From contig CAYGQJ010000013.1 in the NCBI GenBank assembly GCA_964351845.1, positions 7,182 to 71,181 of the forward strand: DNA of 64,000 nucleotides, given 5' to 3'. Source of the stretch: an uncultured Flavobacteriaceae bacterium. Lineage in GTDB: Bacteria > Bacteroidota > Bacteroidia > Flavobacteriales > Flavobacteriaceae. A program made the translations under genes and the position numbers. The notes beneath the pieces are model-generated. The model was not told the DNA's origin, made no database searches, and saw only the letters and a list, made by a program, of their open reading frames with translations. This document shows, piece after piece, positions 17,321 through 61,902 of the stretch (within the stretch, counting starts at the first letter, position 1; every line of letters begins with the position of its first letter).

Positions 17321-18379
17321 ATGAATTTAAAAACGTATCTATTCTTCGTTTTCCTTCTATCTTTTGCTTTCGCGAAAGCGCAAGACCAAAAAACCTACAA
17401 GCCACACACCATCGCTTTTTATAACGTAGAAAATCTTTTTGATACGGAAAATGATCCTATTACATTTGATGATGACCGTACGCCAGACGGAAAAGATCAT
17501 TGGACCGAAGCTATCTATGCAGATAAAATACAGAAAATGGCGCGTGTCATCTCAGAAATAGGCAAAGACATTACAAAAAATGCCCCTGCTATTATTGGAC
17601 TGGCTGAAATAGAAAATAGAAAAACCGTAGAGGCACTTGCTAATGATCCTCAATTACTAGACAAAGAGTATGGAATAGCCCATTTTGACTCCCCAGATCG
17701 AAGAGGAATTGATGTCGCTCTTATGTATCAGAAAGCAATATTTACGCCTATACACATTAGTAAACACGAGCTTATTATTTACACTAATGACGATGCTAAA
17801 AAACGTAAATATACACGCGATCAACTACTGGTTTCGGGTTTATTGGATGGGGATATGATTCATGTGATTGTCAACCACTGGCCTTCGCGTTCTGGTGGAG
17901 AAGCCCGAAGTCGTAAAAAACGTATGGCAGCGGCAGCACTTAATAAAAAAATCATAGATAGCCTTCAAAGTAATGACCCGTATGCAAAAATCATCACCAT
18001 GGGAGATCTTAACGACGACCCGACAAGCCCGAGTGTAAAAAAAGTATTGAAAGCTAAAGGAGATAAAGACAAAATAAAAGATAAGATGCTCTATAATCCT
18101 ATGGAGCCTATGTTTAAAAAAGGGATGGGTACCTTAGCTTATAGAGATGGTTGGAATCTTTTTGATCAAATCTTAATTACAGAACCCTTATTACGTAAAG
18201 AATATAGTTCCTACAGGTATTTTAAAGCGGGTATTTATAACAAAAATTACCTCAACACCCCAAAGGGTCGGTACAAAGGATATCCGTATCGCAGCTTTGC
18301 TAATGGAGGCTACACGGGAGGGTATAGTGATCATTATCCCGTATATATTGTCCTTATCAAAGAAGTAGCAGATAATTAG
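17321..18379 (+). CDS. Secreted endonuclease/exonuclease/phosphatase (EEP) family nuclease
   Basis: IAFYNVENLFDT, GLAEIEN, DRRGIDVAL, VNHWPSR, MGDLND, LFDQI, GYSDHYPV. Confidence 0.9.
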   Translation: MNLKTYLFFVFLLSFAFAKAQDQKTYKPHTIAFYNVENLFDTENDPITFDDDRTPDGKDHWTEAIYADKIQKMARVISEIGKDITKNAPAIIGLAEIENRKTVEALANDPQLLDKEYGIAHFDSPDRRGIDVALMYQKAIFTPIHISKHELIIYTNDDAKKRKYTRDQLLVSGLLDGDMIHVIVNHWPSRSGGEARSRKKRMAAAALNKKIIDSLQSNDPYAKIITMGDLNDDPTSPSVKKVLKAKGDKDKIKDKMLYNPMEPMFKKGMGTLAYRDGWNLFDQILITEPLLRKEYSSYRYFKAGIYNKNYLNTPKGRYKGYPYRSFANGGYTGGYSDHYPVYIVLIKEVADN

Positions 18380-18391
18380 ATTTCTTTTATT

Positions 18392-18452
18392 CGCTCCTGC
18401 CTGCCGGCGAGGCAGGTTTGAGAAATGGTATGCTGAGCCTGTCGAAGTAGCG
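18392..18452. repeat. Degenerate palindrome A carrying a B insert in one arm and a C insert in the other
   Basis: CGCT|CCTGCCTGCCGGCGAGGCAGG|TTTGAGAA|ATGGTATGCTGAGCCTGTCGAAGT|AGCG. Confidence 0.8.
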
Positions 18453-18467
18453 TACCACCAAAAATAA

Positions 18468-18500
18468 AAGAGGGAAGATGTTTTGCATCTTCCCTCTCTT
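18468..18500. terminator. Intrinsic terminator between convergent genes
   Basis: AGAGGGAAGATG-ttttg-CATCTTCCCTCT with A/T-rich flanks. Confidence 0.75.
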
Positions 18501-18520
18501 GTTTTAATTATCTTTATAAG

Positions 18521-18952: not shown

Positions 18953-19003
18953 AATGTGTGTGTTTAAATAATGACTCCTCAAAGATAGGGCATTTTAAAC
19001 CAA

Positions 19004-22529: not shown

Positions 22530-24143
22530 TTATGCTTTTTTATACGAAATTAACAACTGCCTTGTAGACGCATCATGAACAGAGGATTCAACATCGTCAA
22601 AGTCGCTAAGCACTTGTTTAGCAAGCTGTTTACCAAGTTCTACACCCCATTGATCATAACTGTAAATATTCCAAATAACACCTTGTACAAAAATTTTATG
22701 CTCGTACATAGCGACTAAAGCGCCTAAAGTCTTTGGAGAAAGTGTATTTATGAGATAGGTAGTGGTTGGTTTATTTCCTTCAAAAACCTTAAAAGGGGTA
22801 AGCTGTTCTATACGCTTTCGCGAAAGCGAACTCTCCTTTAATTCATCTGTCACCTGAGCTTCAGTCTTACCGTTCATTAAGGCCTCTGTCTGTGCAAAAA
22901 AGTTTGCCATCAATTTATCATGATGATCTACATTGCCATGAAGACTTTTCTTAAACCCGATAAAATCAGCAGGAATCAGTTTTGTTCCTTGGTGGATTAA
23001 CTGGAAAAATGCGTGTTGTGAATTGGTCCCCGGTTCCCCCCATATAATATTCCCTGTTTCGTATGTCACAGGATTTCCATTGCGATCTACACTTTTCCCA
23101 TTACTTTCCATAATCGCTTGCTGTAAATACGCAGGCAATCTATGTAAGTATTGCGTATATGGAATAACGGCTTCACTTTCGGCACCAAAGAAATTATTGT
23201 ACCAAATACTTAATAAAGCGGTAATGACAGGGATGTTTTCGCCGAAAGGCTGTTCTTTAAAATGAACATCCATCTCCTGAGCACCTTTCAACAGCTCTTC
23301 AAAATGATCATATCCTACTGCTAGAGCAATAGAAAGCCCTACAGAACTCCAAAGGGAAAAACGCCCCCCTACCCAATTCCACATAGGAAAAATATTTTCT
23401 GATGCAATTCCGAAATTTTGGACAGCTTCTAGATTGGTAGATACCGCCACAAAATGACTTCCCACAGCTTCTTCTCCCAGCTGATCTACAAACCAAGCGC
23501 GTACCGTAGTAGCATTACTCAGTGTTTCTTGCGTGGTGAACGTTTTTGAAACGATAACAAAAAGTGTCGTCTCAGGATCAAGATCTTTTATGGTTTCCAT
23601 CACATGATCTCCATCTACATTTGAGATAAAGTGTGTGGTTAAATGATTTTTATAATACTGCAATGCCTCTACGACCATCACAGGCCCCAGATCTGATCCT
23701 CCGATACCTATGTTAACAACATCGGTAATCGCTTTTCCGGTAGCACCCGTATGCGCACCATCTATAATACTTTTTGTAAAGGTTTTTATAGCACCACGTA
23801 CGTCAGCAACTTCTTCTTTATGGTAAGCTGTTGTTGAAAAATCTCGTAAAGCAGTATGCATTACAGGACGATCTTCTGTTGCATTTATAGCTTCGCCTCC
23901 ATAATAACTAGCAATAGCTTCTGTAAGACCTACTTCTTCTGCAAGCTCAATGAGAAGTGATTTGGTTTCTTCTGTAATTCTATTTTTACTATAATCTACA
24001 AGAAAGTCCTTCCATTGTATCGTAAATGTTGCGGCTCTACCTTCATCTTTGAAGAGTTCCTTAAGGTGTGTGTCCTTTATGGTATCAAAGTGTGCTTGTA
24101 ATTTCTTCCAAGCATGTGTTTCTGTTGGGTTGATATTCTTCAT
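22530..24143 (-). CDS. pgi: Glucose-6-phosphate isomerase
   Basis: [53 protein letters not shown]. Confidence 0.98.
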
Positions 24144-24166: not shown

Positions 24167-25486
24167 TTATAAATCTTCTTCTTGAAGTGTGCTAGAGGCG
24201 CCTACACCTTCACCTTCACTGTCTGTTGCAAAAGGAATGGCTTCTAATTGTTTTTGAAGAGGCTGCATAATGCTGTCAAATATAGGCTTAAGATCTTCAG
24301 CAAGTGGCTCTGAAGCAGGTAAGTCTTCTTTAAAAGGATCTACTTGTCTACCATTTTTCCAAAAGCGATAACATACATGAGGACCTCCTGTATTTCCCGT
24401 CATCCCTATGGTTCCTATAACATCTCCTTGTCTTACAAAATCACCAACACGCACACTTCTTTTTTGCATGTGTAAATATTGGGTCTCATACGTTCCATTG
24501 TGCCGTATTTTTACATAATTTCCATTCCCTCCTTTACGCTCTGATTTTGTAACAGTTCCATCTGCTGTGGCAAGAATGGGAGTTCCAATACCTCCAGCAA
24601 AGTCAGTCCCTTTGTGAGGCCGAACTTTATAACCATAATATTTTATACGTCTTTTCAGATTATATCGAGAGGAAACTCTATTAAATTTTAAAGGACCTTT
24701 TAGGAAAGCACGTCTTAGATTATCTCCATTTTCATCAAAATAGTCAGAACCTCCTGGAAGGGAATCATTTTGAAAATGATAGGCATATACAGGTCTTCCT
24801 TTATGCTCAAAAACACTTGCTTTAATTCTCCCAATACCTGCAGGAACGGTATCATTCACAAAGCGTTCTTCATAAACTACTTTAAAGCGATCTCCTTCTT
24901 GAAGTTTAAAGAAATCTATTGTCCATGCATAAATATCTGCCATTCTATAGGCTACCAAGACATTGGTATCTAACTCATCAAAAGTAGAAGACAAATTACT
25001 ACTGATAACACCTGATATTTCTTTTTCTACAATGGTAATGGGATGTGATTTTTCTTCTGCAGTGAACTCATCTTGAAAATCTACTACTACGTAATCTTCT
25101 CTATTTTTTTCATAAATAAAGACTTGTGCCTTTTCTAAGGAATCCTTTGATTTTAATAATACATAAGGCTTTCCTGCCTTTATCTTACGTGTATCAAAAA
25201 CGTCTTGTATGGTATCTGAGATTTGCTGTATGGTTCCATACCCCACATGAGAATCAAAAAGAATTTTCCCAAAACTATCACCAGATTTTACCGTATCTCG
25301 CTGCACGATATAGTCATCTAAGACATACCCATAAGCCTCTACAGGTGGTTCTTCAATAATTTGCTCCTCATAAACAGGTGCTGGTTTCTCTTCTTTATCA
25401 CCACAAGCAACAAAGCTAAATGTTACTAATACGATCGTAAAAATGGTTCCTAATCTCACAGGTTTTATCATCTGTCCTTTATACAT
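24167..25486 (-). CDS. M23 family peptidoglycan DD-metalloendopeptidase (lipoprotein-like)
   Basis: [34 protein letters not shown]; true start may be the downstream Met (MIKPV). Confidence 0.9.
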
Positions 25487-26417
25487 CTTGCCCCCAGTTT
25501 GCTAATTCTTCGGTAGTCCAAACCTCTGGAAAAAATATTCTGCGTTGGTATTTAGGGTGCATATATTTTGTCCATTCACTTCCACCTGTTGCTTCTACTA
25601 CGTGTTCTCCATTATTCAGGTAATGGTTTGCTGTGTGATAGTGTGACATCACCCAAGTTACATTCACCGTATAGTCGTAGTGTCTCATTGCTTTTAACAA
25701 TGTTGGATCATTTTGATCTGCTTCAGGTAGTGATTTGAATTTTGCGTACAAATTTATAGTATTATATTCTTTTGTAAATGCTATAAACTCATTTTTATAT
25801 TTTTCTTCAAATGCGTACAGTAAATAACTCTTCTTACCCGTGTTGTAGTCTTTTCCAGCTGCTTGCCAGTACAGATGCTCTAAGGCATGTTCATAGGGAG
25901 TGTTCCTATCTATGGTTTCGCGAAAGCGAGCGTCTATCAAATTAATTAAATCGGTACTTGCAAATTCTATTTTCCGGTATTGTGCGCTCTGAAATCCGCT
26001 GGCAGGCGTTAAGGTCTTTCTGAATTTCATATACTGCTCAAGATCCATCCCGTCTTTCATAATTGTAAAAGAGGAAGTCAAGATATCAAAGTAACGGCTT
26101 ATACGATCCAAGCGTGATGCAAAAAAAGCGACCGTTAGGTTTTTATGATGTGCAACTTGTTCTATTTCCCAAAGCACCATTTTAAAGAGGAGTTCATTGA
26201 CCTGATGGTACATGATGAACACGTTTTCATCGGGGAAATTTGTACGTGGTAGCTGGAGATTAAGTAAGGCGTCAGTATGGATGTAATCCCAATAGGTAAT
26301 GGGTTTGCTTTGTAATAAACCTTCCAGATGATCATCAAGGTCTTGATCTATTTTCTCATATTTATCATCAAGAGCATCAATAATACGCTCAATATCTGGT
26401 TCGATTTTTTTCTTCAT
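25479..26417 (-). CDS. kynA: Tryptophan 2,3-dioxygenase family protein
   Basis: YWDYIHTDALL, DENVFIMYHQVNELLFK, LTPASGFQSAQYR, TGGS. Confidence 0.88.
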   Translation of the reverse strand: MKKKIEPDIERIIDALDDKYEKIDQDLDDHLEGLLQSKPITYWDYIHTDALLNLQLPRTNFPDENVFIMYHQVNELLFKMVLWEIEQVAHHKNLTVAFFASRLDRISRYFDILTSSFTIMKDGMDLEQYMKFRKTLTPASGFQSAQYRKIEFASTDLINLIDARFRETIDRNTPYEHALEHLYWQAAGKDYNTGKKSYLLYAFEEKYKNEFIAFTKEYNTINLYAKFKSLPEADQNDPTLLKAMRHYDYTVNVTWVMSHYHTANHYLNNGEHVVEATGGSEWTKYMHPKYQRRIFFPEVWTTEELANWGQDV

Positions 26418-29032: not shown

Positions 29033-29081
29033 GTATATTATGTTAGACGCTTTTGTATTTCGATGGTCTCAATGTTGACTT

Positions 29082-29117
29082 CGCTTTCGCGAACCTGCCT
29101 GACGGCAGGCAGGAGCG
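29082..29117. repeat. Palindrome A split by a 20-nt B insert
   Basis: CGCTTTCGCGAA|CCTGCCTGACGGCAGGCAGG|AGCG. Confidence 0.9.
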
Positions 29118-30510: not shown

Positions 30511-31620
30511 CTAGAACTCAAACCGCAATTGCACATCGATTTCTTTTTCTTCAAGTGTTGTCTTAGCTTTCTTTTTATCTTCTGTATTCAAATTAGACAG
30601 TGAGATGCCTAACAACCGTACACTATCCTTCATTTTTTCTTGATATAAAAGCTCTTTGGCGGTTTCTAGAATCACATCTTTGGTGCGTACATAATAATCG
30701 AGTGTTCTGCTACGCGTTTGTAAGGTAAAATCAGAGTATTTAATCTTAAGGGTTACCGTTTTTCCAGCGACGTTGCTTTTAGAAAGGCGTTTCTCCACCT
30801 CCTCGGCAATATGATCTAGGCGCTCCATCATAAAAACTTCTGAGGTAATATTTTCAGAAAATGTACGCTCCGCAGCAAGGGATTTTCGAATGCGATTGGG
30901 TTTCACCTGACTGTATTGAATCCCTCTTACAATATCATAATAATACGCCCCACTTTTCCCAAAATGTTGCGCCAAATATTCTTTGGACTTCTTTTTCATA
31001 TCCAGTCCTGTAAAAATTCCCTTTTGGTACATTTTTTCAGCCGTTACCTTCCCAATTCCATAAAACTTACGGATGTCAAGGGTCTCTAAAAAAGCAACCA
31101 CCTCCTCTGGCGGAATGGTTTTCTGTCCATTGGGTTTATTGATATCGCTGGCCACCTTAGCCACAAACTTATTAATGCTAATGCCCGCCGAAGCATTCAA
31201 TCCTGTTTTTTCTTTGATTTTCTGACGTATCCAGGTAGCAATCACCGTAGCACTGGGCATGCCTACTTTATTTTCAGTGACATCCAGGTAGGCTTCATCA
31301 AGAGATAAAGGCTCTACAAGATCTGTAAACTCATGAAAGACTTCTCGTATTTGCTTTGAAACTTCGTTATAGCGTGCAAAATCAGAGCGAACAAAAATAA
31401 GTTCAGGACATAATTTACGCGCTAGCACCCCACTCATGGCACTTCGCACCCCAAATTTACGCGCTTCGTAACTCGCTGCGCTCACTACGCCACGCTCACC
31501 TCCACCCCCCACAGCAATCGCTTTTCCTCGTAAACTAGGATCATCCAACTGCGCTACAGATGCATAAAATGCATCCATATCTACATGAATAATCTTACGA
31601 ATAGGGAGGGACGTTTCCAT
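30511..31620 (-). CDS. dinB: DNA polymerase IV
   Basis: IIHVDMDAFYASV, AASYEARKFGVRSAM, SLDEAYLD, AKVASD..KPNG; probable start METSLP (ORF track start 31656). Confidence 0.96.
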   Translation of the reverse strand: METSLPIRKIIHVDMDAFYASVAQLDDPSLRGKAIAVGGGGERGVVSAASYEARKFGVRSAMSGVLARKLCPELIFVRSDFARYNEVSKQIREVFHEFTDLVEPLSLDEAYLDVTENKVGMPSATVIATWIRQKIKEKTGLNASAGISINKFVAKVASDINKPNGQKTIPPEEVVAFLETLDIRKFYGIGKVTAEKMYQKGIFTGLDMKKKSKEYLAQHFGKSGAYYYDIVRGIQYSQVKPNRIRKSLAAERTFSENITSEVFMMERLDHIAEEVEKRLSKSNVAGKTVTLKIKYSDFTLQTRSRTLDYYVRTKDVILETAKELLYQEKMKDSVRLLGISLSNLNTEDKKKAKTTLEEKEIDVQLRFEF

Positions 31621-31677
31621 AACATGCAAGGTACGGATTAGCCTAGAAGTTTTCAATAGATATTGTACATTTGAGAT

Positions 31678-32346
31678 ATGCCAAAAACAGCCATCATATT
31701 AGGAGCGACAGGACTTACAGGAGGCCTCTTAACCGAACTTCTCATCAATGATCCTGCCTATTCAAAAATCAAACTCCTTACCAGAAGACCTACCACATTT
31801 TCCAGCCCTAAAATAGAAGAAGTCATTTGTGATCTGCTTAACCTAGAAACGGTCAAAGAAGAGGTTACAGGAGATGTCGTTTTTTGCTGTATTGGTACCA
31901 CAAAAGCCAAAACACCTAATCGAGATCTATATCACAAGATTGATTACGGAATTCCGCTAAAAGCTGCAAAACTTGCAATAGAAAATAAGATAACCACGTT
32001 TATGGTGGTCTCCTCTATAGGCACTTCTGCTAAAAGCCCGTTTTTCTATGTCCGTACCAAAGGAGAAATGGAACGCGATGTGCTAAAAATAGGGATCCCA
32101 CATACCTATATTATGAAACCTGCCTTTATCAATGGCCGTCCCGATGAAGATCGAAAAGGAGAAAAAAGCCTTAAACTCCTCATGCGTATCATGGACTTTT
32201 TTATGGTAGGACCACTTAAAAAATACAAATCTACACAGGCACTACAAATCGCCAAAGCCATGGCATATCTCGGGACACACGATCACAAAGAACAGAATGT
32301 GCTCAATGATCAAATCAAAACACTAAGCAATGCCTATAGCATTTGA
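31678..32346 (+). CDS. NAD(P)H-binding short-chain oxidoreductase (TIP30/YraR-like)
   Basis: ILGATGLTG, FCCIGTT, IDYGIP, FYVRTKGEME; TACATTTG -7 box at 31666-31673. Confidence 0.85.
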   Translation: MPKTAIILGATGLTGGLLTELLINDPAYSKIKLLTRRPTTFSSPKIEEVICDLLNLETVKEEVTGDVVFCCIGTTKAKTPNRDLYHKIDYGIPLKAAKLAIENKITTFMVVSSIGTSAKSPFFYVRTKGEMERDVLKIGIPHTYIMKPAFINGRPDEDRKGEKSLKLLMRIMDFFMVGPLKKYKSTQALQIAKAMAYLGTHDHKEQNVLNDQIKTLSNAYSI

Positions 32347-32740
32347 TCACATCACGGCACCTTCAAAAAACCTAGAGGCTTCCATTGCATTCTATAAAAA
32401 GATAGGAATGACACTTATTGAGATAGAACCTAAGCATCATGCGCACTTTGAAAATAAGGAACATCATACCATTTTTACTGTATATTACAACACAAAACGC
32501 CCAGAAGATGACGTCATTATTTACTTTGAAGTCACTCATATTGAGTTATTGGAAGTCCGCTTTCGCGAACTTGCCTCGCCAGCAGGCAGGAGCGAATACT
32601 TCATAAAAACAAACTACGCTACTTCCTGGGGAGGTCACGAACTTCACCTGAAAGACCCAGACGGAAATTGTGTAATTTTATATCAAAAGAATCAAACGGG
32701 AAATACCCCGCCTTGGCAAACCGCAACATATGAATCTTAA
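32330..32740 (+). CDS. VOC/glyoxalase family protein with an in-frame 21-nt repeat insertion
   Basis: FDHIT...FYKKIG...WGGHELHLKDPDGN; a split palindrome A plus B insert encodes RFRE-LASPAGR-SE. Confidence 0.8.
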   Translation: MPIAFDHITAPSKNLEASIAFYKKIGMTLIEIEPKHHAHFENKEHHTIFTVYYNTKRPEDDVIIYFEVTHIELLEVRFRELASPAGRSEYFIKTNYATSWGGHELHLKDPDGNCVILYQKNQTGNTPPWQTATYES

Positions 32741-33635
32741 TCAAATCACCATACCCTCCATAGACGTCAATCACGCTGTTGCGTTTTATAAAAAACTAGG
32801 ACTCCTACTCATTGTATACGTGCCTGAGCAATACGCTCGTTTTGAATGCCCCGATGGTGACAGTACGTTTTCTATCCATAAAGTAGACGAATTATCGTCT
32901 GGAGAGGGCGTCATTGTCTATTTTGAAATAGAAGAGCTTGACAAAAAAGTAGCCGAATTACAAGATCTTCACGGAGATACGATTCATTTTGACCTACTTC
33001 CTACAGACCAGTCATGGTTATGGAGAGAAGCCCGACTCAAAGACCCGGACGGGAATCAGCTTATTTTATTCCATGCAGGAGATAACAGGAAGAATCCGCC
33101 TTGGCGAATTAAAAGTGAAACTACAGAAGATTCTCGCCTTCGCGAGAATGAAAGTGAATCTTTTGAAATAGAACGTAAATTTTTACTCACCTCAGATGCT
33201 TTCAAAAAAGAAGCAAAGACCGCAACACGCATTACACAAGGATATCTCAGTATAGCCCCTGAACGCACGGTGCGTATTCGCACAAAAGGAGACAAAGGGT
33301 TTCTCACGATAAAAGGAAAATCAAATGAGAGCGGTACCACGCGTGTTGAAGTGGAGGAAGAGATCGCTTTCGCGAAAGCGGAAACACTTCTCAAACTCTG
33401 CCTTCCCGGGATCATAGATAAAACCCGATACGAAGTTATTATCGGAAAACACACCTGGGAAATCGACGAATTTTACGGAGAAAATGCTGGACTCCTACTC
33501 GCCGAAATAGAACTCTCCCAAGAGAATGAATTTTTTCAAAAACCCTCTTGGATTGGAAAAGAAGTTACTGGAAATAAAAAATACTATAATTCTTATCTTA
33601 GTACACATCCTTTCAAAGGTTGGGACGAAGAATAA
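32730..33635 (+). CDS. VOC family domain fused to a CYTH (triphosphate tunnel metalloenzyme) domain
   Basis: N-terminal MNLNQITIP...WLWREARLKDPDGNQLILF; C-terminal EIERKFL, ITQGYL, RTVRIR, LTIKG, KTRY, WEIDEFYG, LAEIEL, YYNSYL. Confidence 0.85.
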   Translation: MNLNQITIPSIDVNHAVAFYKKLGLLLIVYVPEQYARFECPDGDSTFSIHKVDELSSGEGVIVYFEIEELDKKVAELQDLHGDTIHFDLLPTDQSWLWREARLKDPDGNQLILFHAGDNRKNPPWRIKSETTEDSRLRENESESFEIERKFLLTSDAFKKEAKTATRITQGYLSIAPERTVRIRTKGDKGFLTIKGKSNESGTTRVEVEEEIAFAKAETLLKLCLPGIIDKTRYEVIIGKHTWEIDEFYGENAGLLLAEIELSQENEFFQKPSWIGKEVTGNKKYYNSYLSTHPFKGWDEE

Positions 33636-35429: not shown

Positions 35430-35431
35430 AC

Positions 35432-38361: not shown

Positions 38362-38391
38362 CTTGAATTTATGTTTATTTTTCTTGTTTTT

Positions 38392-38574
38392 ACCCCTTCC
38401 GTCAATAGCGCCGCTCTCGCTTCACTATTGCCACCTTCCCTGCCAGGGGAAGGAGCTCATGAGATAGTTATCTTTTAAACTTGGTGGAAATCTATTTGAT
38501 TTTCACCCCTTTTTAAGGCTCTCCTCCTTGAAAGGGAGGAGTGGCATTCGCCCAAGCGAATGACGAGGTGGGTC
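38392..38574. repeat. Family F hairpin pair (F1 forward 38392-38456, F2 reverse 38515-38574) downstream of DUF559
   Basis: ACCCCTTCCGTC-[hairpin]-GCCACCTTCCC..GGGGAAGGAGC and an inverted relative; repeated at 39017-39201. Confidence 0.88.
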
Positions 38575-38585
38575 AACCATCATCT

Positions 38586-38975: not shown

Positions 38976-39016
38976 AATTGTGTTTTTTGTATTTCCTATT
39001 ATATTCTACTATTTTC

Positions 39017-46873: not shown

Positions 46874-48223
46874 ATGAACCGTACGATCCTCTCTTTTTTA
46901 GTCAGTTTTTTGATTTCTACATCTATTTTCCTGTCATCCGAACAGGCAGGCGCGCAAGCGGACTTTTTACAGTCAGGGCCTATGGTGGGATATTCTGATT
47001 TTCGAGAAGTACTGATTTGGGTACAAACCAAAGCTCCTGCCGATGTGAAAATTGGATATTTCGCTCAAGGCGAAAAGGAACGATTCACACCCACCGTTAC
47101 CGCTACAGCAGCCGAAGATCATATTGTAAAATTATTTCCAAGTGACGTGGCATATGGAACGCAATACACCTATAAATTATACATCAATAATCAACATGTA
47201 AAACGCCCGTATCCTTTAGAATTCCAAACGCAAACCTTATGGCAATATCGCACAGATCCGCCATCATTTACCTTTGCGATTGGATCTTGTTTTTATCGGA
47301 ATGACCCTACAGATGACCGCCCTGGAAAACCGTATGGAGATGTCTACGGAATCTTTGAGAGTATCGTTCAAAAAAGTCCTGATTTTATGGTCTGGCTGGG
47401 GGACAATATTTACCTACGCACCCCCGATTTCCAATCTGAACGTGGCATCCGATATCGGAACCGAGAAGCGCGTGCCACACCAGAATTACAATCTTTATTA
47501 GGAAGTGTACATCACTACGCGATTTGGGATGACCACGATTTTGGCCCCAATGATTCTGATCGGAGTTATGTACATAAAAAAATGACTGAAAAAGCCTTTA
47601 ACGACTATTGGGGGAATCCGAGTACCAATGCCACTGGAGAAGGCGGGATTACGGGACAATTTGTGTGGAATGATGTCGAGTTCTTCTTGATGGATGATCG
47701 CTATCACCGCGCACCTAACCGAAGTCTTGACACTACTAAAGACTACCTTGGAGAAGCGCAACTCAACTGGCTTATAGATGCGCTAACGGCTAGTAAAGCA
47801 TCTTTCAAAATCGTATGTATTGGTGGGCAAACCATCAGTGATGCGGCGGTGTACGAAAACTACGCCACGTATCCAGAAGCCCGCAAGCGTTTATTAGATC
47901 GTATTGCCGCCGAAAAGATAGAAGGCGTTGTCTTTATGAGTGGAGACAGGCATCATACGGAGATCTCTCGTTTAGAACGCCCAAATGCCTATCCGCTGAT
48001 TGATATTACGTGTTCGCCGCTTACTTCGGGCACCCATAAAGCCCGTGATGAAGGAAATACGTTACAAGTAAAAGACAAAACGTATTATGAGCGCAACTTT
48101 GGCATAGTCAACGTTTCTGGAACGTATGGAAAACGTACGCTTCTACTTACCATTTATGACGAAAAAGGGGCAAAAGTATGGGATTATACGATCTCACAAG
48201 AGGAATTGAAGTATCAAAAATAA
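46874..48223 (+). CDS. phoD: PhoD family alkaline phosphatase
   Basis: FAIGSCF, WLGDNIY, IWDDHDF, FFLMDDRYHR, LGEAQLNWL, MSGDRHH. Confidence 0.88.
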   Translation: MNRTILSFLVSFLISTSIFLSSEQAGAQADFLQSGPMVGYSDFREVLIWVQTKAPADVKIGYFAQGEKERFTPTVTATAAEDHIVKLFPSDVAYGTQYTYKLYINNQHVKRPYPLEFQTQTLWQYRTDPPSFTFAIGSCFYRNDPTDDRPGKPYGDVYGIFESIVQKSPDFMVWLGDNIYLRTPDFQSERGIRYRNREARATPELQSLLGSVHHYAIWDDHDFGPNDSDRSYVHKKMTEKAFNDYWGNPSTNATGEGGITGQFVWNDVEFFLMDDRYHRAPNRSLDTTKDYLGEAQLNWLIDALTASKASFKIVCIGGQTISDAAVYENYATYPEARKRLLDRIAAEKIEGVVFMSGDRHHTEISRLERPNAYPLIDITCSPLTSGTHKARDEGNTLQVKDKTYYERNFGIVNVSGTYGKRTLLLTIYDEKGAKVWDYTISQEELKYQK

Positions 48224-48224
48224 A

Positions 48225-48453
48225 GCCGGGGCTTCAGTACAATTTTTAGGATTGCTTTTAGCAATTATAAAAATCACTCAGCCACCTTTGATCCGTTTTT
48301 AATATGTGCTTTCGCGAAAATCACTTAGCCGCCTTATATTTTGTTTTAAAGTCGGCATTTCGATACATTTTGCTTCAATAGAAAAAGAATCAAAGGACAT
48401 TGAGTGATTTCAGAGTTCTGAAAAAGAACTCTGAAATAGTACCGAAATGCCGG
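48225..48453. repeat. X/Y mosaic (BIME/REPIN-like) unit 1
   Basis: X GGGGCTTCAGTAC..ATCACTCAGCCACC (48225-48287), partial A+X (48308-48333), Y GGACATTGAGTGA..GTACCGAAATGCCGG (48395-48453). Confidence 0.88.
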
Positions 48454-49952: not shown

Positions 49953-50045
49953 GTGTGATTGTTTAGTAGTATAGACGCGTCATTTTCACAAAAGGTTGTC
50001 TCGCATCTTTTTTTATGACGATTTTATAGATGGAATGTTACTTAA

Positions 50046-50239
50046 GCCGGGGCTTCGGTACAATTTTTAGGATTGCTTTCAGCAATGATAAAAATCACTC
50101 AGCCGCCTTTGATTTGTTTTTGTTATATGCTTTCGCGAAAGCAAAAAATTACTCAGACGCCTAACATTACAACAAACACAGGACATTGAGTGATTTTAAA
50201 ATCCTGATAAAGGGTTTTGAAATAGTATCGAAATGTCGG
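50046..50239. repeat. X/Y mosaic unit 2 with an embedded palindrome A
   Basis: X 50046-50108, A 50129-50142, Y 50181-50239. Confidence 0.88.
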
Positions 50240-50253
50240 ATCAATAAGAAATA

Positions 50254-50412: not shown

Positions 50413-50437
50413 AAAGCAAAGATAGTGAAGATTAATT

Positions 50438-50562
50438 GGGGGCTTCGGTACAATTTCCGCTTACGCGAAAATCACTCAGCCGCCTAGCATTGTATCAAGG
50501 AGAGGACATTGAGTAATTTCAAAATCCTGAAAAAGGATTTTGAAATAGTATCGAAATGCCGG
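50438..50562. repeat. X/Y mosaic unit 3
   Basis: X with an A-like core (50438-50485), Y 50504-50562. Confidence 0.88.
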
Positions 50563-50610
50563 CATCATGGGTCCGCTTTAACGCTTTGCTCTCCCTTTTG
50601 GTCGTGAATC

Positions 50611-51213
50611 TCACAAGCTCGCTTTCGCGAAAGCGGTTTGCATCTCCTTAAATGCTTGCACAGGATCAGCTGCATTCCAAACGCCACCTAAGGCACCCAC
50701 GCCTTGAAAGCCTAGTTTGATCGCTTCTGGGGTAGTTTGTGCGTTGATACCGCCCATGCCTGCAATGAATTTTGGGATGTGACGTACATCAAAACCTCTG
50801 CCTTGCATCTCACTTTTGGAAATCGCTGCAAACACCGGACTTAGCAAATGATAGGCAAAATCAACGGACTGTGCGGCGAGGTCTTCAGGTTCGTGGTAGG
50901 AGCTACTGACCGAAAATTCATTGTCGGTGAAAGATTGAACATAGCTCGCCAACTGATCGCCTTGGGCTCTCCATTTACGTTCTTCCAGATGAATTCCTTT
51001 GATGGGAAACTCGGCCGTGAGTTCGTGATGGAAATTATGCGTCATAATATATTGATAATACTGCGGATCTACTTGATCCAAATAGGCACAGTGCGCTTCT
51101 AGCGTTGCCGCTGGTTTTCTAAAATGAAAATACTGCAAGCCCGCTTCAAAGAGTTGATGCAAGGTTTGAATTTCTGTAGCGCTGGTTTGTTCTGGTGATA
51201 TGAGTAGGATCAT
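50611..51213 (-). CDS. Thiamine phosphate synthase (ThiE/TenI) family protein
   Basis: LFEAGLQYFHFRKP, GIHL, SSSYH, LLSPVFAAISK, AGMGGI, GALGGVW; likelier start MILLISP at 51213. Confidence 0.82.
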   Translation of the reverse strand: MILLISPEQTSATEIQTLHQLFEAGLQYFHFRKPAATLEAHCAYLDQVDPQYYQYIMTHNFHHELTAEFPIKGIHLEERKWRAQGDQLASYVQSFTDNEFSVSSSYHEPEDLAAQSVDFAYHLLSPVFAAISKSEMQGRGFDVRHIPKFIAGMGGINAQTTPEAIKLGFQGVGALGGVWNAADPVQAFKEMQTAFAKASL

Positions 51214-51220
51214 AGTTTTT

Positions 51221-51494
51221 CTTTTCATTCCCTTGAATTTACCTACCGACAGGCAGGGATGGGAATCTCATCATAACGTAAAAGTACGGTTTAATCTACG
51301 TATGAGGAATTTGATTGGTTTTATACCGCTTATGATTCTTTTTAATTCCCGTGAAGACGGGAATCTAATTCTTTTTTTGATTACGTTTCAGAGCTTGAGA
51401 TTCCCGTAGTTATTTACTGATAAGCAGCTAGTAAAATAACATGAGATTCCCGCCGGAGTTTATGCTGAGCATAGTCGAAGTGCGGGAATGAAAG
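51221..51494. repeat. Cluster of family D (ATTCCC-N8-GGGAAT) hairpins, two with nested inserts
   Basis: 51227-51266 (with a 20-nt B insert), 51345-51364 (intact), half copy near 51397, 51446-51489 (with a C insert). Confidence 0.85.
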
Positions 51495-51796: not shown

Positions 51797-51852
51797 TTTT
51801 ATTATTTACTATAAAGTTACGAAAAAAAGAAGCTATTGACTGAATCAAACGC

Positions 51853-51972
51853 GGGGCTTCGGTACAATTTTTAGGATTGCTTTCAGCAATTATAAAAATC
51901 ACTCAGCCGCCTTGCATTGTAACACAAAAGGACATTGAGTGACTCGCTGCAAGCGAGGTGTATCGAAATGAC
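51853..51972. repeat. X/Y mosaic unit 4
   Basis: X 51853-51912; Y with a short CTCGC-TGCAA-GCGAG core 51930-51972. Confidence 0.85.
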
Positions 51973-53098: not shown

Positions 53099-53192
53099 TT
53101 TTTTTGTGAAGATACGAGAATTTGAAACTCTTGTGTCACAACATCGTCAAGTGCAATGACATCTCGTTTTTGTGTATGAGTGACAAAGACAT

Positions 53193-53474
53193 CCGGCATT
53201 TCGGTACAATTTATAAAGTGCTTTCAGCACTTTATAAATCACTCAATGTCCTAGCAGTGTTACAATGTAACAAACACACCCCTTAATCCCCTACTTCGAC
53301 AAGCTCAGCACAGCGTCTTTCTAGAGGGGAAACTCATACTTTAAATGTTTTAAAACTAAATGTAAGGTGGCTGAGTGATTTCGAAGCATGAGAAATAGTA
53401 TCGAAGCCACCGAGTCAAGAACTCAATGTAAGGTGGCTGCCTGTTTTGCTGAAAGCAAAAGGTACCGAAGCCCC
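53193..53474. repeat. Mosaic unit 5: inverted Y, an F hairpin with a C insert, two inverted X copies
   Basis: Y 53193-53251; CCCCT|24 nt|CTTTCTAGAGGGG 53288-53329; X 53365-53410 and 53430-53474. Confidence 0.85.
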
Positions 53475-56756: not shown

Positions 56757-58481
56757 TTAATGTCCACTTGCTTCTCCAGCACCGCTTGGAATTCTAATGG
56801 TTTCTACGATTTCTTGTACCTCGGCTGGTGGCGATGGTGTAAAACGATGTACGATAAGAGCAACCACAAAATTAACGGCCATGGCAACGCTTCCAAAGCC
56901 TTCTGGGGAAATCCCAAACCACCAATCCTTTTGAAGGCCTGCAACGGCTTCTTTACCTCCATCAAAAACCCCAAACTTAAACTTAAGTATGTAAAAAATC
57001 ATGAGTGTAATCCCGACAATCATCCCTGTGACTGCCCCTTCTTTATTCATTTTTTTATAAAAAATTCCTAATACAATGGCGGGAAAGAAAGAGGCGGCGG
57101 CAAGGCCAAAAGCCAATGCTACGACTGCGGCGACAAATCCTGGCGGATCAATCCCAAAGTAGCCTGCAATGACCACCGCTACGGTAGCTGCGCCACGGGC
57201 AATCCATAATTCTTGTTTGTCGGTAATATCAGGTTTAAAGGTTTTTTTGACAAGGTCATGCGATACCGATGATGAGATCACCAGTAATAATCCTGCAGCG
57301 GTTGATAATGCGGCGGCAAGTCCGCCAGCGGCGACTAAGGCAATGACCCAGGCAGGAAGGTTGGCGATTTCAGGATTTGCCAGCACCATAATGTCGCGAT
57401 CTACGGTGAGTTCATTAGCAGGGTGTCCATTTTCCGCTTTCGCGAAAGCGGTATACTGCACCTTTCCATCTCCATTTTTATCTTCAAAAGTAATTAAGCC
57501 TGTCGTTTCCCATTTGGTGAACCATTCGGGCATTTCTGAATAGGGTTGATCACTTACGGTGGTGATCATATTAGTACGCGCAAACACTGCTACGGCAGGG
57601 GCTGTCGTGTATAAAACAGCAATCAACAACAAGGCAATTCCCGCCGATTTACGTGCATCTCTTACGCGTTTTACCGTAAAAAATCGAACGATCACATGGG
57701 GTAATCCTGCCGTTCCTACCATCAATGCTAGGGTGATCATAAACACATCTATCTTTGACTTAGAACCGCTCGTATAGTCAGCAAAACCAAGGTCTTGTGA
57801 GAGGCCATTGAGCTTGTCTAAAAGGTAGGTGCCATCTTCTACGGTACTTCCCATCCCTAGCTGCGGAATCGGATTTCCCGTCATCTGAATGGATATAAAA
57901 ATAGCCGGTACCATAAAGGCAAAAATAAGCACGCAGTATTGTGCAACTTGGGTATAGGTAATGCCTTTCATACCGCCTAATACGGCATAAAACAGCACGA
58001 TAATCATTCCGATGATCACTCCTGTATTGATATCAACTTCTAAAAAGCGTGAGAATACGAGACCCACGCCTCGCATCTGCCCAGCGACATAGGTAAACGA
58101 CACCAACAATGCACAGCATACAGCCACAATTCTTGCCGTTTTTGAGTAATACCGATCGCCTATAAAATCAGGGACGGTAAACTTACCGAACTTCCTGAGA
58201 TAGGGCGCTAATAATAAAGCGAGAAGCACATAGCCTCCAGTCCATCCCATGAGATACACAGAGCCATCATAGCCTCCAAAAGAGATAATCCCTGCCATGG
58301 AGATAAAGGAAGCGGCACTCATCCAATCGGCAGCGGTAGCCATGCCATTTGCCCAAGGAGAAACGCCTCCGCCGGCGACATAAAATTCTTTGGTGGATCC
58401 AGCGCGGGACCAAATGGCAATACCAATATAAAGGGCAAAGGTGATGCCTACGAGTATGTATGTCCAAGTTTGTACAGTCAT
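56757..58481 (-). CDS. Sodium:solute symporter (ActP-like monocarboxylate permease)
   Basis: ANGMATAADWMSAASF, GWTGGY, FTVPDFIGDRY, GTAGLPHVIVRFFTV, AAALSTAAGLL. Confidence 0.93.
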   Translation of the reverse strand: MTVQTWTYILVGITFALYIGIAIWSRAGSTKEFYVAGGGVSPWANGMATAADWMSAASFISMAGIISFGGYDGSVYLMGWTGGYVLLALLLAPYLRKFGKFTVPDFIGDRYYSKTARIVAVCCALLVSFTYVAGQMRGVGLVFSRFLEVDINTGVIIGMIIVLFYAVLGGMKGITYTQVAQYCVLIFAFMVPAIFISIQMTGNPIPQLGMGSTVEDGTYLLDKLNGLSQDLGFADYTSGSKSKIDVFMITLALMVGTAGLPHVIVRFFTVKRVRDARKSAGIALLLIAVLYTTAPAVAVFARTNMITTVSDQPYSEMPEWFTKWETTGLITFEDKNGDGKVQYTAFAKAENGHPANELTVDRDIMVLANPEIANLPAWVIALVAAGGLAAALSTAAGLLLVISSSVSHDLVKKTFKPDITDKQELWIARGAATVAVVIAGYFGIDPPGFVAAVVALAFGLAAASFFPAIVLGIFYKKMNKEGAVTGMIVGITLMIFYILKFKFGVFDGGKEAVAGLQKDWWFGISPEGFGSVAMAVNFVVALIVHRFTPSPPAEVQEIVETIRIPSGAGEASGH

Positions 58482-58530: not shown

Positions 58531-58580
58531 GCTTTCGCGAAAGCCCTCTCTGCCCTTTGGGCATCTCTCCCAGAGGGAAA
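58531..58580. repeat. Palindrome A abutting a family F-like element
   Basis: GCTTTCGCGAAAGC followed by CCTCTC-TGCCCTTTGGGCA-TCTCTCCCAGAGGGA. Confidence 0.7.
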
Positions 58581-58878: not shown

Positions 58879-58983
58879 ACGATGTTAGACTTCGTAAATT
58901 AGTAAATTTAATCGGAATCTACATAGTTGGTTATTTTACTCCGCCATCTATTGAATCATACAGGGGAAGGAAATCATAAGCGA

Positions 58984-60705
58984 TTACCGCTCTACAAACG
59001 TCACTTTTGCAATCTTACCGTCTTCTATTTCATAAATAGCAACGACACTATACTTGTGATCCCCAAAATGGACATACTCTTCATCAATGATTTTAGTACC
59101 CATCACCATACGGTTTTTGATCTCGCAATAAAGACTAGAAGGACTTTCAAACGTTTTTGTAAACTTACTTCTTAAATGTTCTTTTCCTTTTAGTGTAGAC
59201 TCATTAGGGAAATTAAAAATTTCGATGGTATCTGCATAGGTGTCTAAAAAAGCGTCTATGTTTTTTGCATTGTACGCATTTATCTGACGCTGTACGATTT
59301 GTTCTGGTGTTTCTTTAATGATCTCTGAGGCCTGTAAAAGGATTCCATCTTTGATCACAGACTGGATCGTTGTAAGATGCTGGATATCGTCTAGCGGATT
59401 TTTGCTGAGCAAGATCATATCTGCGATTTTTCCTTCTGTGATGCTTCCTAATTGCGTGTCTAAACCAAAGCCTCGAGCTGCATTAATCGTGGCTGCTTTT
59501 AGTAATTGTGCATTGGTAAGTCCGCCTGTTTTCATGGCTTCCATTTCTTGAAGATATGAAGAGGCATGCATGGTTCCTATATTGCCCGCATCGGTTCCTG
59601 TAGCAATATTGACTCCTTGTTCTTGAAGAAAGATGAGATTCTTTGCCATTAACTCGCTCACTTTTGCATAGTATCCTAAAAACCCAGCTGGATTATTCTG
59701 AAAACGCTTTAAAGGAGCGGGCATGGTTTCTTTTGTATACCGTTTTACATCCTTTAATGTGCTATATACTCTTGGGTTTGCAAAATACAGATCTTGTGGA
59801 TGGTCTTCTGGCGTTCCTGTAAAGGAGGTGAAATAGTTTTTTGAGACAATTAATGTCGGGATATAGGTGACTTGATTTTGTTTCAGTAGTTGTGCAAACT
59901 CCTCGGTAAGTTCTTGGTCATCTACGCTATGTACTAAAATATCTGCGCCTGCTTCTACAGCAAGTTTGGCGGTTTTTAATTGCGTGGCATGCACTGCTAA
60001 TTTCAGATCATTTTCATGGGCTAGTTTTGCGATATGCGCAACAATAGGATATGTTTTTTCTGCGGGTATCCCTGGGCTTGCGATGTACCAAATCTTAATA
60101 AAATCAGGCTTATAGGGGAGCATTTTATTAAATAAGGCAGTGGCTTCAGCCATCGAAGTGATTTTTTCGATAGGCACATCGGCTAGTGTAGAAAGGGCTT
60201 CTGGTTGGTAGGGCGAAAATAAAGGTCCTGTCACATACACATTGGGAGCGATTTGTTCTTTTGCAATGGTATCGCGGACTTTAAAATTAGAAAATGGGCC
60301 TCCTACATCCATCACTGTGGTGATTCCTAGACGCAAATAGCGTTGAAAACTATCTTTTGCCATTTCTTCTGCAAACGCCAATTCGTCTTCATAGGGAACG
60401 ATATCGGTTAAACCCATCGCATCGGGTCGTGTGTATAGGCTTCCGGTTTGAAAAAAGTGAATATGCGTATCAATCATGCCTGGCATCACATAATGCCCTG
60501 TGGCATCTATCACTTGATACCCCTTTTTATTTTTGATCGCTTTCGTACTTATGTTCGCAATGATTCCTTCCTCTACTAGGAGGTTTTGTTTTTCTACCAA
60601 TGCGCCCGTATTCACATCTACAAGGGTTGCATTTGTAATTATCAGGTTTTGTGCATACAAAGAATAGGATAGCAACGCCATGCAAACAAGGAAGCAATAT
60701 TTCAT
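58984..60705 (-). CDS. Secreted amidohydrolase with a C-terminal SnoaL/NTF2-like domain
   Basis: MPGMIDTHIH, AVHA, ILVH, GTDAGN, G.IADMILL; C-terminal PEQIVQRQINAYNAKNIDAFLDTY...IDEE. Confidence 0.88.
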   Translation of the reverse strand: MKYCFLVCMALLSYSLYAQNLIITNATLVDVNTGALVEKQNLLVEEGIIANISTKAIKNKKGYQVIDATGHYVMPGMIDTHIHFFQTGSLYTRPDAMGLTDIVPYEDELAFAEEMAKDSFQRYLRLGITTVMDVGGPFSNFKVRDTIAKEQIAPNVYVTGPLFSPYQPEALSTLADVPIEKITSMAEATALFNKMLPYKPDFIKIWYIASPGIPAEKTYPIVAHIAKLAHENDLKLAVHATQLKTAKLAVEAGADILVHSVDDQELTEEFAQLLKQNQVTYIPTLIVSKNYFTSFTGTPEDHPQDLYFANPRVYSTLKDVKRYTKETMPAPLKRFQNNPAGFLGYYAKVSELMAKNLIFLQEQGVNIATGTDAGNIGTMHASSYLQEMEAMKTGGLTNAQLLKAATINAARGFGLDTQLGSITEGKIADMILLSKNPLDDIQHLTTIQSVIKDGILLQASEIIKETPEQIVQRQINAYNAKNIDAFLDTYADTIEIFNFPNESTLKGKEHLRSKFTKTFESPSSLYCEIKNRMVMGTKIIDEEYVHFGDHKYSVVAIYEIEDGKIAKVTFVER

Positions 60706-60795
60706 AATTGATCTATATTTTTAGATAAAGGTACGGAAAGTGTTCAATGCATTCAGAGGTTTTTTCTCTTATTGAATGTGTTACGATTGTCTTTT

Positions 60796-61902
60796 TTAGG
60801 AATGCACAATCGTTTCAAAAGTTCCGGGTAGGGCTACTTCGAGGAATTCTAGATCTTTGGAGCTGTGTGTAAATTGATAGTTCATACCGGGCGGAATAAC
60901 AAACGCATCGCCTTCGGTAAGGTGTTGTATGTCTTGACCTTCGGCGGCTAGTCGCATAGATCCTGAGAGCATAAAACTAAACAGAATATCTGTCGTATGA
61001 CTTACAACAGGGCTTTCTTGCAGTGTCTGAGTAGGTTTTATAACATGCACTGCGGCATCACCTTGGGTGGCACTGTGGATACCGCTTTCGCGAAAGCGGA
61101 AACCTGCGACACGCCAATCTTTCCAAACAGCATCTTTGACTTGATGATGACAGAAACGCTGCCCTTGAAAAAGTCGGTCGGGGCGATAGGTGTTTGTAGG
61201 GAGTTCTAGATCGTGATCTATGGTGGTCATATGCTCGGCAGGGACTCCAATCTCTATCACTTCCAAATGATCTGAGGCTTCGAGTACGCGGTGGCGTATT
61301 TCGGGAGGCTGGGTCACACAATCACCTGCATGTAATATAAAGGGAGGGCCTTGGTCTTCATAGACCAATTTTACCCAACCGCGTTTGCAAAAAATGAGTT
61401 GAAATCCGATGGTATGGTAATGCACCATATCGGGTACGGGGCCGCCTTCAGGTATACTGATATGTGAGGCAATGATGCTCCCACCCAATCTATCAGGAAT
61501 GAGATCGCGATATAGCATCCCCGCACGGCCAATCACCCATGAGGATGCTTCGGATAATTTACGAACTTCAAAGTGATGCTGGGTGCTTGGAGTGACCAGT
61601 GTATGGGTTCTGGGTAGTACCTGAATTACTGTCCCATTAGGTGCAATAAGTTCTTTTTTTCCGTGTGCAATAGTTTCTGGTATGTCTGTAATGATATTAA
61701 TCACCGGCGGCGGACTTGTTACACGTTTGTCTAAGACAAGGTGCATCCCAAATCCTGAGAGCATGGCTACCGCAGGATGATCTGCAGGAAATATTTTATC
61801 CAATCGAAATCCTAGTTGGATGAAAAAATCCATATCAGCCGTGAGGTCTTCTGAGGGTAAACGCAGTTGTGCGTAGGATGAAGTGGGATGGTATGTGCTC
61901 AT
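60796..61902 (-). CDS. VOC-like + double cupin domain protein
   Basis: N-terminal VOC-like segment; GPVPDMVHYHTIGFQLIFCKRGWV...HAGDCVTQPPEIRHRV; second cupin GDAFVIPPG. Confidence 0.8.
   Translation of the reverse strand: MSTYHPTSSYAQLRLPSEDLTADMDFFIQLGFRLDKIFPADHPAVAMLSGFGMHLVLDKRVTSPPPVINIITDIPETIAHGKKELIAPNGTVIQVLPRTHTLVTPSTQHHFEVRKLSEASSWVIGRAGMLYRDLIPDRLGGSIIASHISIPEGGPVPDMVHYHTIGFQLIFCKRGWVKLVYEDQGPPFILHAGDCVTQPPEIRHRVLEASDHLEVIEIGVPAEHMTTIDHDLELPTNTYRPDRLFQGQRFCHHQVKDAVWKDWRVAGFRFRESGIHSATQGDAAVHVIKPTQTLQESPVVSHTTDILFSFMLSGSMRLAAEGQDIQHLTEGDAFVIPPGMNYQFTHSSKDLEFLEVALPGTFETIVHS

Follow-up and report, generated by a model that had tools for sequence, protein, structure and literature searches.

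The highly iterated palindrome (HIP) HIP1, GCGATCGC, is a GC-rich 8-mer of cyanobacteria centred on GATC. Its core carries palindromic extensions, and SDR5, a small dispersed repeat (SDR) forming a hairpin of ∼21 nt, inserts between its third and fourth bases (PMC4390886). Conservation of HIP1 sites between genomes exceeds what codon or peptide effects account for (PMC5861425). What HIP1 does has been a question for three decades, and all examples have come from cyanobacteria. Here we analyzed a 64-kb stretch of DNA from an uncultured member of the Flavobacteriaceae (the window, to which the coordinates of all copies refer), in which a 14-nt palindrome centred on CGCG, GCTTTCGCGAAAGC, recurs within and between genes. 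The window belongs to Dokdonia, as judged from PbpC, alpha-2-macroglobulin and Pgi, with D. ponticola as the nearest named species (91% identity in PbpC). We regard it as firm that a HIP-like iterated palindrome, maintained at the DNA level, exists outside the cyanobacteria, and this word of marine Flavobacteriaceae gives an independent second system in which the responsible protein could be sought. We are also confident in a more specific description of it, as a highly iterated DNA palindrome specific to the Dokdonia/Nonlabens branch that lies about three-quarters within genes, is made by substitution and is held exact over genus-level divergence. The literature that we searched contained nothing on the 14-mer, nothing relevant on its 10-mer core, and no report of such a repeat, palindrome or methylome for Dokdonia or Nonlabens.

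The word shares its evolutionary behaviour with HIP1 and the alternative HIPs: a perfect palindrome is hugely over-represented in one lineage, lies in all reading frames as well as between genes, is made by substitution and occupies conserved sites. The palindromic extensions of the core and an SDR5-like rider are also common to both. The two differ in phylum (Bacteroidota here), in length and centre (14–16 bases around CGCG versus eight around GATC), in density (140–320 per Mb versus 300–2700 per Mb for HIP1) and in sharpness, one-mismatch copies being common in HIP1 and rare here. Phylum, length and sharpness, together with the skewed arms described below, are what is new beyond HIP1. An exact site of 14–16 bp is also far easier than an 8-mer to use for affinity capture, nick mapping and phylogenetic profiling.

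A preliminary description of the window had reported at least 11 exact copies; we counted exactly 11, all between 17366 and 61097 (Table 1). An order-3 Markov model predicts 0.0002 copies for the window, and 100 dinucleotide-preserving shuffles of it yielded no exact 14-mer. Sites with one or two mismatches were also in excess (seven versus 0.13 expected), giving a ratio of exact to one-mismatch to two-mismatch sites of 11:4:3. The nested counts fell from 26 for TCGCGA to 17 for TTCGCGAA and 14 for the 10-mer, and then stayed at 11 for both the 12-mer and the 14-mer, indicating that the unit is at least the 14-mer; the 16-mer CGCTTTCGCGAAAGCG occurred six times, so about half of the copies extend to 16 bases. 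Outside the motif TCGCGA was at expectation (about 9 sites in the window versus about 8), and neither it nor CGCG was enriched there. Nothing so far therefore indicates a TCGCGA-specific system, and we rejected an NruI-type restriction-modification signature. Four further copies had been missed earlier, three of them split by insertions (18393–18451, 29083–29116 and 32559–32593) and one decayed (12812).

Eight of the 11 exact copies are coding and three are intergenic. The coding copies use all three frames, and the frames and hosts assigned to them earlier were reproduced: AFAKA in five genes (EEP nuclease, CYTH, alpha-2-macroglobulin, ThiE-like and symporter), LSRKR in two (Pgi and PbpC) and RFRES in one (cupin). 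When synonymous codons were shuffled within each gene for 2000 rounds, which keeps both the protein and its codon usage, the mean was 0.09 copies and the maximum two, as compared to the eight coding copies observed, so that the enrichment anticipated over a codon-aware null was indeed present. All five AFAKA peptides of the window are spelled by the motif; TTC and GCG being minority codons, the probability of the motif given AFAKA is 0.008. Across the clade, 136 coding copies fell into phases 0, 1 and 2 in numbers of 75, 36 and 25, and ∼74% of all copies lay within long open reading frames (ORFs), with about 26–30% outside. We rejected a peptide-level explanation on account of the three frames, the intergenic copies and the spelling of five of five AFAKA peptides in rare codons. 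It is the DNA word that is maintained, and neither a peptide nor a stable hairpin; that the DNA and not the peptide recurs had been noted earlier. The word does alter proteins, by writing AFAKA, LSRKR or RFRES into them and by skewing amino-acid usage nearby, and the mini-elements that enter it occasionally add 7–8 residues.

The distribution of the word was determined by scanning one genome per species (185,579 species), with counts taken among the matches listed (117 blocks). Dokdonia, Nonlabens or close relatives accounted for 82 of these 117 blocks, and 42 of the 82 held two or three copies in 8 kb, while the 29 blocks from other phyla had one copy each. At loci picked by protein and not by motif, we found 139–324 copies per Mb in Dokdonia and its sister lineage L118, that is, roughly one copy per 3–7 kb in the Dokdonia/Nonlabens branch. 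Negative-control loci were taken from genome scans with Pgi and the symporter, which had no Dokdonia among the matches listed; among those matches, no copy was present in the Pgi set (79 loci, 1.6 Mb) or in the symporter set (80 loci, 1.46 Mb), both drawn from other Flavobacteriaceae and Bacteroidota. The word is a sharp marker of Dokdonia/Nonlabens DNA.

The public sequencing runs that match the window do so as metagenome contigs only. In four of them (X4, X7, X11 and X13) contigs start or stop at motif copies (61074–61105 and 57426–57449), and unrelated contigs align over the motif alone, indicating that the word fragments short-read assemblies of these organisms.

How did the coding copies come to lie in their genes? 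We compared four exact copies (Pgi, EEP, CYTH and symporter) with their orthologues. None of the four showed a simple added block and three were without any length change; the symporter copy sits in a variable-length loop. Codon numbers were equal where Pgi reads LSRKR with the motif and LSEEK or MSGAE in motif-free orthologues, where the EEP nuclease reads AFAKAQ versus SAEAQ (no length change against eight orthologues), and where the CYTH protein reads IAFAKAE versus IPIDEAT (IPIDEA or ITLEEA in Flavobacterium). The same held for tryptophan 2,3-dioxygenase (TDO), with RFRET versus RFRDT, a site where the ancestral peptide was already RFRD/KT. Gains and losses between the window, L118 and a further relative, L406, likewise occurred without indels. 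Given the equal length relative to motif-free orthologues, we rejected an insertion origin of the coding copies; net insertion at every copy, which the preliminary description had named as the sign of an ordinary coding repeat, was not seen in the orthologue alignments, and its suggestion of substitution stood. We consider it highly probable that the copies were written in by base replacement, not by added DNA, and mostly in tolerant segments of proteins.

Once present, the copies are kept. In an alignment of six Dokdonia genomes with 74–87% nucleotide identity to the window, 0.6% of ungapped 14-nt windows were identical in all six, versus all three coding copies in what is a small sample, their flanking C and G included. 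The copy at 17366 is retained as far as L118, which is ∼74% identical to the window by BLAST over the syntenic stretch, and the cupin copy (61084) is unchanged in metagenome relatives whose flanks have diverged by ∼10%. Because the tested copies arose by substitution and are conserved in the six genomes, the HIP1-like reading given earlier holds; its enrichment, recurrence in all frames, lineage specificity, origin by substitution and conservation beyond background were all upheld. Turnover is visible in Pgi, where an older site (site A, AFAKAEV) is found in most of the clade and has decayed in the subclade of the window (e.g. AFEKEEV), and a second site (site B, the copy in the window) is limited to a subset and was gained. 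In carriers of site B at least 10 of 21 adjacent nucleotides differ relative to the nearest non-carrier, without a change in length, and the next codons are conserved. The clustering of these changes and the scarcity of intermediates suggest that new copies were probably made in one short templated step, and not by slow point mutation.

We then considered whether the sequence or a structure is read. In 537 kb of clade DNA exact copies numbered 133, as compared to 17 sites with one mismatch and 18 with two; palindromic double variants were absent. The hairpin of the 14-mer amounts to about −2 kcal/mol as DNA or RNA, which is no better than shuffles, Rfam had no match for the motif, and a bidirectional terminator would have the opposite of the flanks seen here, which are T-rich on the 5′ side and A-rich on the 3′ side. 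The exactness of the word, the lack of compensating palindromic variants and the weak hairpin together indicate that it is read as sequence, not as structure. We rejected a hairpin or RNA function of the 14-mer on these grounds (weak fold, no compensated variants, no Rfam match, unpaired flanks). Self-correction of a quasi-palindrome was also rejected, as it predicts symmetric double variants and there were none among the 18 two-mismatch sites. A symmetric variant was seen once, at the EEP site of L406, where GCTTTTGCAAAAGC carries C-to-T changes of the inner CpG on both strands and remains a perfect palindrome; this single case would fit either arm-to-arm correction or deamination of a methylated cytosine. 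On either strand, GCGAAAGC forms the 3′ half of the word; we take it to be the unusually stable, nuclease-resistant DNA mini-hairpin of Hirao and colleagues, a structure beyond the ViennaRNA parameters.

The word is part of a larger symmetric unit. C and G occupy positions ±1 in ∼80% of copies, and T and A positions ±3 in 66–79%, so that the core is usually extended to ttaC-core-Gtaa (26-mer form, TTATACGCTTTCGCGAAAGCGTATAA). Intergenic copies are often palindromes of 24–26 nt (TATACGCTTTCGCGAAAGCGTATA, −9 to −11 kcal/mol) just downstream of genes. Beyond this consensus, the ∼27 nt 5′ of the motif on each strand are G/T-rich with 2–10% C (background, 18%), and the ∼27 nt 3′ of it are G-poor and A/C-rich. 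The skew is mirrored, with G exceeding C on the left of 129 of 146 copies and C exceeding G on the right of 122 of 146; control palindromes were flat. Coding and noncoding copies alike have it, it affects all three codon positions (the third most strongly), it shifts amino-acid usage beside the motif, and it holds in Dokdonia and Nonlabens separately, whereas chance copies in other phyla lack it. Pairing between the flanks is no better than after shuffling, and the flanks of different copies are not homologous, so the feature is compositional only. At a given site the skew of carriers exceeds that of motif-less orthologues, which is itself not zero. No mirrored skew was found at 74 HIP1 sites on the plasmids pSYSM and pCC7120alpha, a further difference from the word described here.

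Viral contigs with the word are mostly single chance matches. Nine viral or proviral loci in IMG/VR (L337, L374 and seven others) carry two or three copies within 11–15 kb, often in the 16-mer form, with a flank skew weaker than that at host copies.

The word is itself a target for small hairpin elements. Over 852 kb of clade DNA a 20–21-nt hairpin, mini-insert A, lay in nearly every instance at GCT^TTCGCGAAAGC, that is GCT^TT(C/T), between bases 3 and 4, and its polarity relative to this bond was always the same; the orthologous sites are empty in other genomes. This insertion at GCT^TTC parallels that of SDR5 at bond 3^4 of HIP1. At 29083 and 32559 both the window and D. ponticola read GCTTTCGCGAA/CCTGCCT..AGGCAGG/AGC, and L202 or L404 have the intact word. 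In the second of these copies the 21-nt insert (32570–32590) adds seven residues in frame to an ORF with a glyoxalase domain (Pfam). A second family, mini-insert B (ACTTCGAC..GGCTCAG.AT.., 24–34 nt), targets the same word and is nested with A at 18393; run X11 has a 24-nt in-frame insertion of family B inside the symporter copy (57436), and an older B-like insert occupies 29049–29082, just upstream of the copy at 29083. In arrangement, both families resemble the SDRs of the Nostocaceae as these are cited in PMC4390886 and PMC5861425 (Elhai et al. 2008): such elements are 20–28 nt long, form hairpins, are present or absent at orthologous sites, nest in one another and use a fixed bond of an iterated palindrome. 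They differ in coming from another phylum, and in that two of the cases here are in frame within genes.

Which process could leave these traces? The mirrored flank skew and the insertion of a ∼21-nt hairpin at a fixed bond narrow the mechanisms toward strand-specific DNA processing, and all-or-none exactness, a strand-specific flank footprint, riders at one bond and clustered changes fit a protein that nicks or opens DNA. We infer such a protein, a nick and a conversion step. In this proposal a sequence-specific, probably dimeric protein would recognize the exact dyad of 14–16 bp and would nick or open the duplex there, the favoured phosphodiester being the one that joins bases 3 and 4 on either strand. 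Hairpin mini-elements could enter at the opened bond with a single polarity, the 3′-ended strands on both sides of a break at the motif would be G/T-rich, and new copies would arise by a short templated patch (conversion) instead of stepwise point mutation. Candidate roles at the level of the cell are recombination, repair or uptake marking of ‘own’ DNA, or chromosome organization. That a DNA-processing protein recognizes the word and nicks or opens the duplex there seems to us somewhat short of an even bet, and for the explanation as a whole, an iterated palindrome that doubles as a strand-processing recognition site, the chances appear about balanced. More tentatively, the ∼70-bp unit (a G/T-rich, C-poor arm, the palindrome of 14–16 bp and an A/C-rich, G-poor arm) could be a genome-wide programmed strand-processing or recombination site of a dedicated enzyme that the hairpins parasitize, HIP1 and SDR5 following the same logic. 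If so, iterated palindromes would form a class of DNA-processing marks that spans phyla, and not a cyanobacterial curiosity.

Several observations weigh against a strand-processing site. The insertion evidence consists of about 10 independent instances of family A, and the high ratio of exact to near copies comes in part from blocks selected for an exact copy, the ratio in the window itself being 11:4. The skew at second codon positions almost equals that at third positions, and motif-less orthologues were weakly skewed at two of three sites, so choice of site or selection on flank composition could explain the skew without cutting. By our own reasoning, the skew would have the opposite polarity under the simplest polymerase-error model of very-short-patch synthesis. 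A Pfam search of nearly all window ORFs of at least 100 aa (three short ones apart) revealed no DNA methyltransferase or transposase gene and no candidate protein; a DUF559/Vsr-like ORF was rejected as the specific partner, having close homologues that are common in motif-free genera. Binding, nicking and methylation at the word are putative.

The alternative that survives best is a neutral drive, in which biased short-patch mismatch repair (Vsr-like or methylation-directed, as in Elhai's model of HIPs) converts near-cognates to the exact word without any service to the cell. A very sharp ratio of exact to one-mismatch copies is what this would give, conservation is expected if mutated copies are corrected back, short tracts of resynthesis could leave a flank footprint of ∼25 nt, and such a model has been proposed for HIPs (PMC4390886). 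However, repair of single mismatches cannot build a 14-mer from sequence that differs at 7–10 positions, and conservation of HIP1 sites has been argued to favour selection (Xu et al., PMC5861425). There is no enrichment of TCGCGA or CGCG outside the motif, the family of the sole Vsr-like gene seen (38586–38975) extends across motif-free genera, and the polarity of the skew is, as we reason, opposite to that of the simplest nick-translation error model. We consider repair drive unlikely.

The uptake signal sequence (USS) of Pasteurellaceae such as Haemophilus and the DNA uptake sequence (DUS) of Neisseria are lineage-specific, non-palindromic words that occur about once per kb, have many one-off variants and are tied to demonstrated competence. 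An uptake or ‘own-DNA’ signal for natural transformation, spreading by biased uptake and recombination, would share with them much of what we observed: a clade-specific word with an extended flank consensus, found in all frames of permissive coding segments, made by substitution and conserved between species. Both 3′-ended strands would be G/T-rich after a cut at the motif, and HIP1, for which such a role is now proposed, has been linked to transformation efficiency and competence genes (bioRxiv 10.1101/2024.09.10.611283; 10.64898/2026.06.24.733823). The word described here differs in being palindromic, in a density 4–8 times lower and in the rarity of its one-mismatch relatives. Competence of Dokdonia or Nonlabens is undocumented in the literature searched, and uptake alone does not explain the fixed insertion point of the mini-elements. 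This leaves an uptake signal as a still less likely account than repair drive.

Less likely again is a site for a nucleoid- or chromosome-organizing protein that does not cut, with flanks shaped by binding preference only, a role that Xu et al. proposed for HIP1. Dyad symmetry, exactness, the symmetric extended consensus and conservation all agree with it, and the periodic spacing of HIP1 provides a precedent (PMC5861425), but a dimer bound to duplex DNA is not obviously able to tell G from C over a flank of 27 nt, and the position- and polarity-specific mini-insertions are unexplained.

Finally, an ordinary mobile palindromic repeat, of the kind of repetitive extragenic palindromes (REPs) and bacterial interspersed mosaic elements (BIMEs) with their REP-associated tyrosine transposase (RAYT), or of miniature inverted-repeat transposable elements (MITEs), would make the coding copies insertions or their remnants. 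This is very improbable: intergenic DNA is over-represented among copies (about 26–30%), intergenic copies form hairpin-forming palindromes of 24–26 nt just downstream of genes, the word lies in a mosaic with short modules and 130–230-nt elements bearing terminal inverted repeats and is an insertion target for other elements, and mini-elements add 7–8 codons in two cases, but REPs are extragenic and imperfect whereas the word is exact and ∼74% intragenic, the coding copies tested show no added length against motif-free orthologues, unlike MITEs, there is no target duplication, flanks share composition without homology, and the window has no transposase or RAYT-like gene.

Table 1. Copies of the word and related elements in the window (labels such as L404 denote loci of other genomes)
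Position	Feature	Context	Orthologous sites and remarks
12812–12825	Decayed copy, GCTTTCACGTAAGT, three mismatches		L404 and L405 carry exact TACGCTTTCGCGAAAGCGTATA
15463–15476	One-mismatch copy, GCTTGCGCGAAAGC	Gene 14328–17192(−)	Degenerate in L118 too
17366–17379	Exact copy, phase 0, AFAKA	Signal-peptide cleavage region, EEP nuclease gene 17321–18379(+)	Exact in L404, L405, L118; GCTTTTGCAAAAGC in L406
18393–18451	Split copy: GCT / mini-insert A 18396–18416 / TTTGAGAA / mini-insert B 18425–18448, reverse orientation / AGC		Intact (TATACGCTTTCGCGAAAGCGTACC, 24-mer) in L404 and L406
22814–22827	Exact copy, LSRKR (site B)	Variable loop, Pgi 22530–24143(−)	Exact in L404 and L405; absent from L406 and L118
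25914–25927	One-mismatch copy, GGTTTCGCGAAAGC, RFRET	TDO 25479–26417(−)	Exact in L118
29083–29116	Split copy: GCTTTCGCGAA / mini-insert A CCTGCCTGACGGCAGGCAGG 29094–29113 / AGC	Intergenic	Intact in L202 and L404; simple 26-nt palindrome in L199
30476–30489	Exact copy	Intergenic, 22 nt downstream of dinB-like gene 30511–31656(−)	Exact in L203, L404, L406; one mismatch in L202; rearranged by ∼42-nt insertion in L199–L201
32559–32593	Split copy, RFRE-[LASPAGR]-S	Glyoxalase ORF 32330–32740(+)	Intact in L202
33366–33379	Exact copy, AFAKA	Glyoxalase-CYTH gene 32730–33635(+)	Exact in all of L199–L203 and in L404
37707–37720	Exact copy, LSRKR	End of transglycosylase domain, PbpC 35995–38361(−)	Exact in 6/6 Dokdonia genomes
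40155–40168 and 41009–41022	One-mismatch copies	Alpha-2-macroglobulin	Identical variants in other Dokdonia genomes
44323–44336	Exact copy, AFAKA	Alpha-2-macroglobulin 39231–44828(−)	Exact in 6/6 Dokdonia genomes
48221–48453	MITE-like palindromic element	Truncated motif 48308–48318 (GCTTTCGCGAA joined to AATCACT...)	
50042–50240, 50432–50562, 51846–51944; fragment 53188–53212	Related elements of the MITE-like family		
50129–50142	Exact copy	Intergenic, centre of ∼200-nt MITE-like palindromic element 50042–50240	
50621–50634	Exact copy, AFAKASL* (last residues)	TMP-TENI/ThiE-like gene 50611–51228(−)	Repeated module 50586–50620 precedes
57436–57449	Exact copy, AFAKA	Variable-length loop, SSF symporter 56757–58481(−)	
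58531–58544	Exact copy	Intergenic, followed by repeated hairpin module (CCTCTCTGCC...CCCAGAGGGAGAG)	Region replaced in run X11; hairpin module also follows motif in L202
61084–61097	Exact copy, RFRES	Cupin gene 60796–61902(−)	

Other repeats accompany the word. The short repeated modules beside motif copies at 50586–50620 and 58545–58580, GCTCTCCCTTTTGGTCGTGAATCTCACAAGCTC and CCTCTCTGCCCTTTGGGCATCTCTCCCAGAGGGAGAG, recur by the motif in other Dokdonia, and the first of them carries a hairpin-A-like insert in L199 and L200. The larger elements of Table 1 are 130–230 nt long, intergenic and clustered in a gene-poor stretch, with a terminator-like hairpin, terminal inverted repeats AAGCCGGGGCTTCGGTACAATTT / AAATAGTATCGAAATGCCGG and internal inverted repeats AAATCACTCAGCCGCC / AGGACATTGAGTGATTT; they carry the motif centrally, or its first 11 bases followed by AATCACT. 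Rfam had no match for them; they are a family separate from the 14-mer and may be MITE-like.

The Vsr-like ORF (38586–38975(−), 129 aa, similar to PDB 3hrl) lies between pbpC and the alpha-2-macroglobulin gene in a cassette (38387–39182) flanked by direct repeats of ∼170 nt, 625 nt apart. The window, L203 and L199 have it and L200–L202 lack it at this spot, which is the behaviour of a small mobile cassette; the family of the ORF is widespread in Flavobacteriaceae. Next to pbpC lies a pair made up of a RES-domain toxin and an Xre/MbcA/ParS-type antitoxin (34965–35932(−)), and the same pair lies by the CYTH region in L404 and L406. The gene content of that region also varies: in the window (32330–33635) a glyoxalase ORF of 136 aa is followed by a glyoxalase-CYTH fusion of 301 aa, L404 has a single fusion of 293 aa, and in L406 glyoxalase (125 aa) and CYTH (156 aa) are separate.

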